Positions 9,884 through 14,272 are shown, counted from the stretch's first letter. The stretch is DNA of 64,000 bases from Thermoanaerobaculia bacterium (GCA_017883235.1 JADGNY010000004.1:14161-78160); one strand, 5' to 3'. Program-made: numbers and translations. The notes: generated from the letters alone by a model not told the origin.

Positions 9884-11155
9884 ATGTTCAAGATCGAAGA
9901 GCTTTTCGCACGTGAAATCCTCGACTCCCGAGGCAATCCGACAATCGAGGTCGACTGCCAGCTCGACTCCGGCGCCGCGGGACGCGCGGCCGTTCCGTCC
10001 GGGGCGTCGACAGGCTCCCGCGAGGCTCTCGAGCTACGCGACGCCGACAAGAAGCGGTACCTCGGCAAGGGCGTGCGCAACGCCGTCGACAACGTCGACA
10101 TCATCGCCAAGGAAGTCGAGGGGATGGATGCGCGCGAGCAGGCCATGATCGATCTCCTCATGAAGCAGATCGACGGAACCGAAAACAAAGGCAACCTCGG
10201 CGCGAACGCCATCCTTGGAGTCTCGCTTGCCGTCGCCCGCGCGGCGTCGGAGGCCTCGGGTCTACCGCTTTTTCAATACCTCGGCGGACCGGGAGCACGC
10301 ACGCTACCGGTGCCGATGATGAACGTCATCAACGGTGGCGCGCACGCCGATAACAACCTCGACATTCAGGAGTTCATGATCATCCCGGCCGGCTTCGACT
10401 ACTTCAACGACGCGCTCCGAGCCGGCGCCGAGACGTTCCACCATCTCAAGACAATTCTGCACGATAGAAAGCTGACCACCGCGGTCGGCGATGAAGGCGG
10501 CTTCGCTCCCGATCTGAAATCGAACGCCGAGGCGCTCGATCTCATCCTCTCGGCGATTGAAAAAGCGGGCTACCGCGCCGGCGAGGAGATCTTCCTTGGC
10601 CTCGATGTCGCCGCTTCCGAGTTTTTCTCAAAAGGGCAGTACGCCTTCGAAGGCGAAAAGCGCGACAGCGCGGCCATGGTTGCCTACTACGAACAGCTCC
10701 GCGCCAAATACCCGATCATCTCCATCGAAGACGGCATGTCGGAAGGTGACTGGAACGGCTGGAGCGCATTGACGAAAGCGATGGGCGCCGGGACGCAACT
10801 CGTCGGTGACGACATCTTCGTCACGAATCCTGCCATCCTGGCCAAGGGGATCGAGCAGGGCGTGGCCAACGCCATCCTGATCAAGGTCAACCAGATCGGC
10901 ACGCTCACCGAAACCTTCGACGCCATCGAGATGGCCAAACGCGCCGGCTACCGCTCCGTCATCTCGCACCGTTCCGGCGAAACCGAGGATTCGACGATCG
11001 CCGACCTTGCGGTCGCCACGAACGCCGGCCAGATCAAGACCGGGTCCCTCTCGCGCAGTGAACGCATCGCCAAGTACAACCAACTGTTGCGCATCGAAGA
11101 GGAGCTCGGCGATGCGGCGGTATTCGCGGGGACGAGTATCTTCAGAGCGTTGTAG
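9884..11155 (+). CDS. eno: Enolase (phosphopyruvate hydratase).
   Basis: 423 aa. [24 protein letters not shown]..., the [15 protein letters not shown] motif and full-length colinearity with bacterial enolases. Confidence 0.97.
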
Positions 11156-13028
11156 GCCAAATCGGCACCAATTTCGCCAATTCCCCAAGCACAACCACAG
11201 GCTCGTCCCGACGCGCGACCGTAACCACATCCTCCCGCCCAAACTCCGCGAGCTCCTCGATCTCGAACCCGCGCAACGACTGATCGCAAGCGCAATCGTT
11301 CTCGGGCGTGATGTAGTTCGCGATCACACCGCCGATATGCATCCCGCGTCGTTCGACCTCGGCGATGAGTCGTTTGCTCTCGGCGATGACGACCCGCTCC
11401 GGCCTTGTGACAACGATGACGCGCGTGGAATCGGAACGCATCGCTTCGTCGAGCGCATGAAGAGCGCGCGAAGCGCGGATCAGCTCTTCGCCGAGGGAGC
11501 CTGGGGCAATCAACTCACGATAGCGGAGGAGGATGCGCATGAACTCGCGCACCCACTCGCCGGCAGTCCGTGGTAAATCGATCAGCCGGAGGAAATGGCC
11601 GGTCGGCGCCGTGTCGATGATGATGGCCGCCTGTTCTTCGTCAGCCATGAGATCTGCCAGCCTGGTGATGGCGAATAGTTCGTCGGCACCTGGAGGAGCG
11701 ATCTCCACCAGCTTCTTCATCGCATCGGCGTCGTAGGCGACCGTCATCCCGCCGGGCGTGATGGCACCGATGGCGCGCTCGATCTCTTCACCGAGACTTT
11801 CGCGAAATCGCCGCCACTTCGCGCGCGTATCGATCGTCTCGACTGTCAGATTCGCCGGGGGCGCTTCAACAGCGAAGACGTCGCTGAGCGTGTGCGCCGG
11901 ATCGACGGAGATGACGGTGTACTTCTTATCGGGCGCCCGTGCCGCGAGCTGCAGCGCAATCGAAGCCGCGGAGGTCGTCTTGCCTACGCCGCCTTTTCCC
12001 GCGAGGAAGGTGAGGCGCGCAAGAAGGAGCGCCGGCGTCTCGCCGGCTGGCCCGGCAGAGCCTGCCCTGAGCGAAGCCGAAGGGTCTCGCCGCTGGGGCA
12101 CGCGCGCAGAGCTGTCATGTATATCGGTACCCCCTCGGCGGCGAGACGCCGCCGGGCCAGCCGGCGAGACGCCAGCGCTCCATCGTTCGATCGCCTCCGC
12201 CGTATCCAGCGGCACGCAAGCCCGCGGCGCATCCACGACATCCCCCAGCCTCTTGCGCGCCTCGGCGTCGCGCCCCCGATCGCAATCGTCGTCCGCCACG
12301 GCCCGATTCAGCACTACGAACGGCATATCGATCCCGTCAGCACGCACATCGCGCACGAGCCGTTTCGTCTGTTCCACCACCCATGGCTCCGACAATGTCA
12401 CCGCCACAAACGCCGCGCGCGCGGGATCGGTGAGGAGATCGCGGCGGCGCCGGGCCTCGGCATCGAACTGCTCGATGAAGACATCCATCGCATCGCGAAC
12501 ATTGCGCCGCGTGAACTGCCGCACCATCCCCCGATGCTTGGCCTGCATCGAATCGAGCGCCTCCGCAAACTGACGGAAGTGATCGGCGGACGAGAGCATC
12601 CGTAGCGTGTGTCCCGTCGGCGCTGTGTCGACGACGATCGTCGCATCGGCGTTTTCTTCCACTAACTCGCCGATGCGCATCCACGCCATCAGCTCGTCGA
12701 CGCCGGGGAGCGACAGTTCGAAAAAACGACGCAGCTCGTCTTTGTCGAGATACGTCCCTCGGTCCCCGAGCTCGAGAAAGCTCTCGAGGTTACGGTTCAG
12801 AAATTGGCGATAAAGCGCGCTGGCGTCGAGCGCCTCAGTACGCAACTCGCCACGAAGGATGTCGCCGAGGTTCGAGGCGGGATCGGTCGTGAATAGGATC
12901 ACAGGGCGGGACTTCGAGAGATGCAGGGCCGCCGCAATCGAGATCGTGGTCTTGCCCACGCCGCCCTTGCCGCCGATCAGGATCACGCGGCGTCCGCTGA
13001 GACGGTCGAACGCCGCCGCCAGCGTCAC
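11142..13028 (-). CDS. ArsA/Get3-family tandem ATPase (two P-loop halves), carrying an in-frame insertion of a 155-bp palindromic repeat element in the inter-half linker.
   Basis: 628 aa. Two [10 protein letters not shown]-loops and two DTAPTGH ArsA signature motifs. The linker residues [16 protein letters not shown]...[22 protein letters not shown] are encoded by the repeat at 12027..12181. Its start overlaps the gvpG-like stop as ATGA. Confidence 0.85.
12027..12181. mobile_element. MITE-like palindromic repeat element, copy A, inserted in frame inside the ArsA-like gene.
   Basis: Terminal inverted repeats GCGCCGGCGTCTCGCCGGCTGGCC and GGCCAGCCGGCGAGACGCCAGCGCTC. It is about 85-90 % identical to copy B at 27217..27371. 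Confidence 0.8.
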
Positions 13029-13342
13029 TGCCCGTATCCGGTGTAGATACCGACGCCGCTGTCGCCGTCATCGTCATCGCCGCGCTGCTGCCGCGCCATC
13101 TCCTCGCGGCGCGCACGGATATCGCGGAGGGCTTGGAAGACCTGCGCCTCCTCCACCTTGAACTCCTCGTCGCTGATGTCGCCGACTTCCAGCATCATCT
13201 GCAGCTCGATGAGCCGTTCTTTCCACGGCTGATCGTTCAACAACTCCTCGTTCGCCATCGTCTGGATCTGTTTCATGATCCAGTTGAACCCCGCGATCGG
13301 GAGTTTGATAGGGATCATGAGGATGTCGTCGAGAAGGAACAT
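13025..13342 (-). CDS. Gas vesicle protein G (GvpG)-like protein.
   Basis: 105 aa. N-terminal MFLLDDILMIPIKLP and central GDISDEEFKVEEAQVFQALRDIRARREE fit the GvpG family pattern. Confidence 0.65.
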   Translation of the reverse strand: MFLLDDILMIPIKLPIAGFNWIMKQIQTMANEELLNDQPWKERLIELQMMLEVGDISDEEFKVEEAQVFQALRDIRARREEMARQQRGDDDDGDSGVGIYTGYGQ

Positions 13343-13376
13343 GGTGGTGCGGGTTACTGGGTTACTGGGTTACTGA

Positions 13377-13432
13377 GTTGCAGGGTTGCTGGGTGGGACC
13401 AAGCAACCCTGCAACTTAGCAACCCTGCAACT
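13377..13432 (-). promoter_or_regulatory. Intercistronic hairpin/repeat element between the gvpF/L-like and gvpG-like genes.
   Basis: Perfect 14-17 bp inverted repeat GTTGCAGGGTTGCT(GG)...AGCAACCCTGCAAC, with a second copy of the right arm immediately after it and three tandem GGGTTACTG units upstream. A related motif lies at 15943..15976. Confidence 0.6.
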
Positions 13433-14225
13433 ATCTCTCCGCTCTCTCCAGCTTCAGCCGGATATTCACGAAGTTATACGGCGGCCACGGGCCGGTGTAT
13501 AGAAACGACAGCTTGTTCTCGTATTTTTTCGCGATGTCGGTGATCTGATCGTCGAATGTCTTCGTCTTCTCGCGATCGACGAGGAATGCCGCGTTCAGGA
13601 TCATCTTGTCGCCGATGGGTTTGTTCGATCGTGAGGCGATCGCTGCGTCGCGCAGCGCTTCATAGATCTCGCTGACGTACGCATCCGCTTTTGCTTGTAA
13701 TGCAGACTCGACTACGCGGCCAAGCTGCATGCGCGAGAAGTAGGTGGAGGTCGAAGTATTCGACTGAATCTCTTCCTTCAGCCGTCGGATCTCCTCGTTC
13801 TCATTCTCGATTTCGCGGACGACCTGGTCCTTGTCCCAGTTCACCTTCAGGCCGAACTCGATTTTTCCGTCCATCTTCTGCAGCACGTCGGAGAGCGCGT
13901 CATAGGTTCCCTTGAGAAACTCCTTGATGTCGTTCTCGGTGCGGAAGACCGTGCCGAAGCTCATCGGCAGCACGGTGAAGTCCTTCATCACCAGCTCGTT
14001 CACGTGCTCGTGGGCGAGGGCGTTTTCACGCGTCGGATCGAAGACGATCAACGGGCAGTTGGACACGACGGCCGCGAATTCCTTGTAAGGAACGGTGTAA
14101 ACCTTGTCGCCCCGTCCACCGATACCGACAGGCCCGAAGTCGCGCGGGATGTCCGTTTTGATGATGCAGTAAACGTACTTGCCCTGCTCCGTTTCAGGCT
14201 GCTTTGCCTGTGCTTGATCTTCCAT
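13431..14225 (-). CDS. GvpL/GvpF family gas-vesicle-associated protein.
   Basis: Motifs KYVYCII, TVLPMSFGTVF and the C-terminal LYTGPWPPYNFV signature. Start set at the internal Met (MEDQAQ...) to avoid overlapping the divergent mutY start; the track ORF extends to 14267. Confidence 0.8.
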   Translation of the reverse strand: MEDQAQAKQPETEQGKYVYCIIKTDIPRDFGPVGIGGRGDKVYTVPYKEFAAVVSNCPLIVFDPTRENALAHEHVNELVMKDFTVLPMSFGTVFRTENDIKEFLKGTYDALSDVLQKMDGKIEFGLKVNWDKDQVVREIENENEEIRRLKEEIQSNTSTSTYFSRMQLGRVVESALQAKADAYVSEIYEALRDAAIASRSNKPIGDKMILNAAFLVDREKTKTFDDQITDIAKKYENKLSFLYTGPWPPYNFVNIRLKLERAER

Positions 14226-14272
14226 GTTCGGGGGCCTCGCGAGGATGGAGCAAAGCATACAATACAAGCGAA

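Follow-up and report, generated by a model that had tools for sequence, protein, structure and literature searches.

A gvpF-gvpG-arsA trio between eno and mutY

The 64,000-nucleotide stretch of Thermoanaerobaculia DNA analyzed here (GCA_017883235.1, JADGNY010000004.1:14161-78160; referred to as the window) contains a compact group of three co-directional minus-strand open reading frames (ORFs) that code for a GvpL/GvpF-family gas vesicle assembly protein (GvpF1), a small GvpG accessory protein, and a tandem, pseudo-dimeric ATPase of the ArsA/Get3 family (Table 1). This arrangement had been proposed in a preliminary description of the sequence and is borne out by the ORFs and their profile matches; the motifs YVYCII, LPMSFGT and GPWPPYNF listed there are all present in the GvpF1 translation, and the identification of the flanking genes as eno and mutY agrees with the Pfam domains of both products. 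The gvpF1 ORF reaches a further TTG upstream of its likely start, at position 14267, and at the other end of the trio the 3' ends of arsA and eno overlap by 14 bp. The arsA gene begins with a GTG codon that overlaps the gvpG stop as GTGA, and not as ATGA as first described. Translational coupling, suggested for the trio as a whole, does not apply to gvpF1 and gvpG, which are separated by an 88-nt spacer containing a stable hairpin. A promoter and terminator scan, of a type that is uninformative for Acidobacteria, returned no sigma-70-like promoter and terminator-like sites at background level.

Table 1. Coordinates of the trio, its flanking genes and associated elements; positions refer to the window except in the last row, where they refer to the loci named.
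Feature	Position	Strand	Remarks
Trio gvpF1-gvpG-arsA	11142-14225	-	Three co-directional ORFs
gvpF1, GvpL/GvpF-family gas vesicle assembly protein, 264 amino acids (aa)	13431-14225	-	From likely ATG start at 14225
gvpG, small accessory gas vesicle protein, 105 aa	13025-13342	-	PF05120
arsA-like gene, tandem (pseudo-dimeric) ArsA/Get3-family ATPase, 628 aa	11142-13028	-	PF02374, TIGR00345
P-loop, N-terminal ArsA half, residues 19-28	12945-12974	-	Translation; alignment columns invariant
P-loop, C-terminal ArsA half, residues 343-352	11973-12002	-	Translation; alignment columns invariant
eno (enolase)	9884-11155	+	Pfam Enolase_N and Enolase_C; convergent with arsA
mutY-type glycosylase gene	14204-15295	+	Pfam HhH-GPD and NUDIX_4; divergent from gvpF1
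Repetitive extragenic palindrome (REP)-like hairpin in gvpF1-gvpG spacer	13361-13431	-	Repeats of GTTGCAGGGTTGC, then CAGTAACC three times
Palindromic repeat element, about 170 bp, in frame within ArsA inter-domain linker	12018-12189	.	46-nt inverted arms
Membrane protein gene before gvpL-S-F-K	L111 5983-8322; L173 7517-9796; L174 6887-9715		Homologue at L002 13109-15334

Searches with profile hidden Markov models (HMMs) place all three proteins above the curated cut-offs of the families first suggested for them (GvpL_GvpF, GvpG and ArsA_ATPase). GvpF1 scores 260.5 bits against PF06386 (cut-off 23.6), covering profile positions 1-245 of 245, and aligns lengthwise with the solved gas vesicle protein chains 6l5d (E = 2.1e-20) and 4qsg. 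Its scores lie below the equivalog cut-offs of NF052351 (111 versus 350 bits) and NF045778 (102 versus 200), and we classify it as a member of the PF06386 family, yet as the named orthologue of neither cyanobacterial GvpF nor haloarchaeal GvpL. GvpG scores 58.6 bits against PF05120 (cut-off 30.6) and falls under the cut-off of the haloarchaeal NCBIfam model (30.1 versus 85). The ATPase matches PF02374 in two stretches (285.2 bits) and TIGR00345 (GET3/ArsA/TRC40; 274 bits, cut-off 135), and each of its halves contains the deviant Walker A sequence GKGGVGKT and the switch sequence DTAPTGH, both invariant across eight orthologues. Its best solved relative is the tandem ATPase ARSA1 (chain 5zme, E = 3.6e-37), with Escherichia coli ArsA (1f48) and Get3 also close. 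An exact-sequence look-up returned no record for the window ArsA, and GvpG was found by the same means on a 906-bp read-assembly contig only.

The trio is part of gas vesicle clusters in related genomes

Homologues of GvpF1 number in the thousands, the closest being encoded in Thermoanaerobaculia and other Acidobacteriota. The gene context of six of them reveals one conserved cluster, in which mutY is followed by gvpF1-gvpG-arsA-gvpL-(GvpA-family)-gvpF-gvpK-gvpJ-gvpA; the small GvpA-family (gvpS-like) protein is 58-83 aa long, a PMT_2-like gene lies between arsA and gvpL in some relatives, and the last gene encodes a bona fide GvpA (NCBIfam PRK09371, 118.5 bits, cut-off 100). The left flank is common to the window and these relatives and consists of murB and the genes for a PTR2 transporter, an enoyl-CoA hydratase and a 900-aa protein, followed by yceI and mutY. 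A scan of one genome per species yielded 80 loci, which were annotated by tblastn: structural genes are situated directly downstream of arsA in 50 of the 80 species genomes, about 20 loci are cut by contig ends, and nine continue for at least 5 kb beyond arsA with no structural gene. Nearly every related locus that reaches far enough has a mutY match directly before gvpF1. The ancestral order in Thermoanaerobaculia is mutY, gvpF1-gvpG-arsA-(PMT_2-like)-gvpL-gvpS-like-gvpF-gvpK-gvpJ-gvpA, with mutY as the ancestral left border of the cluster.

The trio is therefore a routine part of gas vesicle loci in this group. It had been presented as a combination not recognized from such loci, with a proposal that its conservation be examined by gene-neighborhood analysis; that analysis yields an outcome which the preliminary description itself had counted against its interpretation, and the occurrence of ArsA homologues in gvp clusters was published in 2010 (PMC2963123). 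Relative to contiguous Thermoanaerobaculia clusters (loci L007, L002 and L010), the window has the same left flank and gene order, and its proteins are 87-95% (GvpF1), 72-75% (GvpG) and 60-71% (ArsA) identical to those of clusters of this type. Unlike them, it has eno directly beside arsA and none of the six genes that lie downstream in those clusters.

The genes for ArsA, GvpF/L and GvpG occur together in every relative examined, and in one locus (L004, 11489-14137) there is an 882-aa ArsA-ArsA-GvpL fusion protein, which points to GvpF/L as a probable partner of ArsA. The earlier suggestion that an ArsA-type ATPase works with GvpF/L gains from both observations. The two ArsA halves are encoded by separate, frame-shifted genes in at least nine loci (L010-L012, L027, L042, L059, L148, L157 and L158; in L010 at 11188-12875). 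None of the Thermoanaerobaculia clusters looked up contains an AAA_5/GvpN-type gene; a review lists gvpN as conserved in every gvp cluster, though the Streptomyces cluster shown there is without it (PMC9501494).

Structural genes are absent from the window

Across all frames of the complete 64-kb window, tblastn and HMMs found no gene for GvpA, GvpJ, GvpS or GvpK and no second GvpL/F gene, so that the absence of gvpA/J/S/K near the trio, noted at the outset, extends to the full stretch. The tblastn queries were GvpA sequences and all nine Gvp proteins of three relatives, and they matched the trio only. HMMs built for this lineage (87-128 sequences per family), run against 1126 six-frame segments, gave no E-value below 0.09 besides GvpF1 itself. 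If a gas vesicle cluster is taken to be a single locus combining gvpA with gvpF/L, gvpG, a gvpJ/M/S-type gene and gvpK, then the window, with gvpF, gvpG and arsA only, does not contain one, whereas 50 of the 80 related species genomes do. At 48.7-49.6 kb, the GvpA and GvpL queries gave weak tblastn matches (E = 0.49 and 0.003), which are attributed to chance because they disappear with the lineage HMMs; they fall within two long ordinary ORFs that by eye encode a metallo-hydrolase and a 5-enolpyruvylshikimate-3-phosphate (EPSP) synthase.

The cluster is broken after arsA throughout the clade of the window

The clade to which the window belongs includes eight of the nine loci with at least 5 kb beyond arsA and without structural genes, as well as locus L021 and three truncated loci, and represents at least nine species genomes. 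Its members encode a MutY at least 77% identical to that of the window (77-83%) and a GvpF1 that is 95-99% identical. Five of them (L013, L014, L021, L022 and L023) have the same arsA-eno junction as the window. The break after arsA is clade-wide, and eno is the point at which the gas vesicle cluster is broken in the window's lineage.

In this clade the separated trio has stayed intact under strong purifying selection. Each of ten clade loci has full-length versions of all three ORFs, and the median pairwise ratios of nonsynonymous to synonymous substitution (dN/dS) are 0.029 for gvpF1, 0.104 for gvpG and 0.140 for arsA, with dS of 0.55-1.0; the corresponding values for eno and mutY are 0.057 and 0.163. 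Among the orthologues from L013-L025, GvpF1 is more conserved than enolase. The other two GvpL/F paralogues of the cluster are far less conserved; in related species genomes their identity to those of L007 is about 37-70%.

A 5-kb block consisting of yceI-mutY and gvpF-gvpG-arsA (11142-15884 in the window) stays together in three or more genomic contexts of the clade that are unrelated to one another, as seen when L016, L018, L019 and L025 are compared with the window. One context has genes for transaldolase/phosphoglucose isomerase and 6-phosphogluconate dehydrogenase upstream of the block and a PfkB kinase gene downstream, and another has a LigD primase-polymerase gene downstream. Two loci outside the clade may reflect independent separations of trio and structural genes in other lineages: the trio of L058 is followed by 7 kb that include nonribosomal peptide synthetase-type genes and no gvp genes, and the 6.2 kb upstream of gvpL-S-F-K-J-A in L168 contain no trio.

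A detached gvpL-gvpS-gvpF-gvpK block

Scanning soil metagenomes with GvpK identified 12 contigs that have gvpL-gvpS-gvpF-gvpK with no trio upstream and no gvpJ or gvpA within up to 10 kb downstream. A divergent marR gene and the gene for a membrane protein of about 770 aa with PMT_2/DUF4214 matches precede the block in all 12, and the same marR/PMT_2-like/gvpL-S-F-K arrangement is located at 1.2 Mb on a 6.64-Mb chromosome (ERZ25039543 contig_5021). A direct connection to the clade comes from the metagenome-assembled genome (MAG) BP_51 (GCA_034664845.1), in which gvpL-S-F-K, again behind marR and a PMT_2-like gene, lies on JAXDGW010000112.1 (QOC81_3930, MEA2239206.1) and the trio-plus-eno locus L021 on JAXDGW010000054.1 (QOC81_2170, MEA2237446.1). 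The offset between the two protein accessions equals that between the two locus tags (1760), and both genes therefore belong to one annotated genome. In at least one member of the clade, the trio and the gvpL-S-F-K block thus occupy different places. A sister lineage (L008, L176 and L179) has the block inverted but still adjacent, with gvpJ-gvpA behind it. Because the block is detached in the clade and inverted yet adjacent in the sister lineage, the gvp cluster appears to behave as three movable modules.

As for gvpJ and gvpA, a GvpJ search gave no match on the 6.64-Mb chromosome or on a second, 5.89-Mb chromosome (OY970380.1) among the 120 matches listed; neither QOC81 nor QOI58 locus tags were among the matches listed for the relatives' GvpA and GvpJ or among the NCBI-sourced GvpJ matches listed. 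The two remaining GvpJ/GvpA contexts that were looked up are sister-lineage clusters in which gvpL-S-F-K is inverted but contiguous.

The membrane protein that always precedes the detached block is about 740-780 aa long and has weak matches to PMT_2, DUF4214 and Agl23-like families. A homologue (43-46% identical) is encoded between arsA and gvpL in L002 and L072, and this gene may be an unrecognized gas vesicle-associated gene.

Probable origin and proposed function of the trio

We consider it likely, with a probability of roughly three in four, that the trio forms the assembly-factor operon of a set of gas vesicle genes now split over separate loci in the lineage of the window. The absence of structural genes is explained at least in part by the splitting of the cluster, since a genome of the same clade has gvpL-S-F-K on another contig; gvpJ-gvpA would survive elsewhere in the clade genomes, and the cells would presumably still be able to build gas vesicles. 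The window represents a rearranged ordinary gas vesicle system and not a new kind of system, to which it adds the split arrangement and a set of natural variants.

Several points weigh against this interpretation. The gvpJ-gvpA pair was not located in any trio-only genome of the clade by searches that reached only contiguous sister-lineage clusters, and the link within a single genome is provided by one MAG from a sister sub-clade (its GvpF1 is 95% identical to that of the window) rather than by the genome of the window itself; binning of a MAG could in principle join contigs of two organisms. We know of no demonstration of gas vesicles in Thermoanaerobaculia. Moreover, the literature searched contained no experiment on any gvp-linked ArsA, and no test of the gas vesicle role proposed for it in 2010.

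The preliminary description had suggested a repurposed chaperone or targeting module. Under such a scenario gvpA and gvpJ have been lost, and the trio, perhaps together with gvpL-S-F-K, serves another hydrophobic client or a structure other than a gas vesicle. It would fit with the lack of gvpA and gvpJ in the 64-kb window and within 10 kb of any trio-only locus or detached block, with the very strong purifying selection acting on the trio after its separation, and with the recurrence of the yceI-mutY-trio block in three genomic contexts, as expected of a self-contained unit. However, the clade still has intact copies of seven dedicated gvp genes, among them those for the GvpA-family small protein and GvpK. 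Their retention is hard to explain without a shell protein and makes repurposing after gvpA loss unlikely; furthermore, no new conserved neighbor accompanies the trio, and its housekeeping flanks differ between contexts. Given that the trio is routine in gas vesicle loci and that splitting of the cluster accounts at least in part for what is missing, we do not favor this scenario. It is also quite unlikely that gvpA and gvpJ are truly lost and that the unusually conserved trio and the detached gvpL-S-F-K block act on a non-classical target, such as another client or a structure built from the GvpS-like protein; were this so, the ArsA/Get3-type ATPase and GvpF/L would constitute a free-standing chaperone system.

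Decay of the locus is very improbable. A remnant, whose structural genes were deleted and whose trio is heading for loss, is suggested by the truncation exactly after arsA and by the repeat element inside arsA, but it is contradicted by the full-length ORFs in 10 of 10 clade loci and by the low dN/dS of 0.03-0.14 at dS of about 0.55-1.0, and the repeat is in frame within a variable linker that leaves both ATPase halves intact. Least probable of all is an arsenic-resistance ATPase that merely sits beside gvp genes, for although it matches the ArsA_ATPase profile and, like R773 ArsA, is of two-domain size, the protein scores 154.9 bits against the ArsA equivalog TIGR04291 (cut-off 650), has no ArsB/Acr3-type family among the relatives' Pfam-annotated neighbors or the scanned window ORFs, and contains no cysteine in the segments of either half that match the E. 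coli ArsA metalloid-site segments, at what we take to be the positions of the metalloid-binding cysteines. Castillo and Saier took the same view of gvp-linked homologues (PMC2963123), and the window ArsA is, to judge from its sequence, not an arsenite pump subunit.

If the trio is indeed the assembly-factor operon of a dispersed gas vesicle gene set, its products might act as follows. GvpF1 would capture the hydrophobic shell protein GvpA, and GvpG would join the GvpF1 complex to form the GvpA-recruiting part of an assembly complex. Of the accessory proteins of Halobacterium, GvpF alone binds GvpA, and GvpG has GvpF and GvpL as binding partners (PMC7688916). GvpN is thought to power the incorporation of GvpA (PMC9501494); in these clusters, which have no gvpN, the two-domain ArsA/Get3-type protein would be the sole ATPase, and we infer that it has an ATPase role in gas vesicle assembly. 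ATP-driven cycling of the ArsA pseudo-dimer between open and closed states could hold GvpA-family subunits or hand these hydrophobic proteins over at the growing shell; alternatively, its task there might be to recycle the GvpF/L complex.

The window shows the gvpF-gvpG-arsA trio to be a separable and independently maintained module of the acidobacterial gas vesicle gene set. The presence of ArsA without gvpN, together with the ArsA-GvpL fusion and the split ArsA genes, offers a testable case for a Get3-like ATPase in the assembly of a hydrophobic shell. For annotation, a genome-wide search is needed before an isolated gvpF/gvpG/arsA trio is taken to indicate that gas vesicles are either absent or present.

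Comparison with known systems

The gvp clusters of Bacteroidetes/Chlorobi, Cyanobacteria and Acidobacteria have been described as containing two-domain ArsA homologues, for which a part in biogenesis was suggested (PMC2963123), and ArsA co-evolves with gvp genes in cyanobacteria (PMC5464585). The window resembles clusters 4 and 6 of Castillo and Saier 2010, which include the acidobacterial 'Aba1' (PMC2963123), in having a two-domain ArsA (about 600-640 aa in both) without ars partners; there it is set among gvpF/L, G, J, K and M-type genes, and those authors also proposed that the ATPase energizes a step of gas vesicle biogenesis. It differs in that the published clusters, whose function was untested in that study, are contiguous, whereas the ATPase and its two partners in the window are separated from the other gvp genes. 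A further likeness is to the gvpOAFG-JLSK type of Streptomyces coelicolor (PMC9501494), also from a soil bacterium, with its content of A, F, G, J, L, S and K and no gvpN or gvpC; the acidobacterial clusters, unlike it, have no gvpO, carry an ArsA-type ATPase and follow another gene order.

The window ATPase belongs to the same fold family as Get3/TRC40 and ARSA1 (5zme), and its tandem architecture is that of ARSA1. Get3/TRC40 and ARSA1 are targeting factors for tail-anchored proteins, and by analogy it is plausible that the window protein shields hydrophobic segments. Unlike in those systems, no Get1/2-like membrane receptor or tail-anchored client is evident, and the presumed clients are shell proteins of the GvpA family. 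E. coli R773 ArsA (1f48) is likewise a tandem P-loop ATPase with DTAPTGH in both halves, but the window protein fails the equivalog model, is without metalloid-binding cysteines, and has no arsenite transporter among its annotated neighbors.

Repeat elements and a conserved cysteine motif

The gvpF1-gvpG spacer contains a REP-like hairpin with a minimum free energy of -50.7 kcal/mol (z = -9.5). The repeat motif is present in three copies in the spacer, and a fourth near 15945 (15945-15957) is a one-mismatch match, compared with 0.02 expected. In relatives the spacer varies in length from 8 bp to about 1 kb, which marks it as an insertion hot spot. The hairpin could act as an attenuator or an RNA-stability element.

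A second copy of the palindromic element in arsA is located at 27225-27363, 15 kb away. The orthologue alignment shows the inter-domain linker to be the variable part of ArsA, and pieces of the same element (e.g. 'PAGETPAL') form the linker in several other species, so that the ArsA linker seems to have been built from a genomic repeat. A D-C-x-C-D motif toward the C-terminal end of the second half (residues 578-582, about 11283-11297) is invariant in eight of eight aligned orthologues and may be a metal or redox site; a less conserved DDDCD is found at the equivalent place in the first half.

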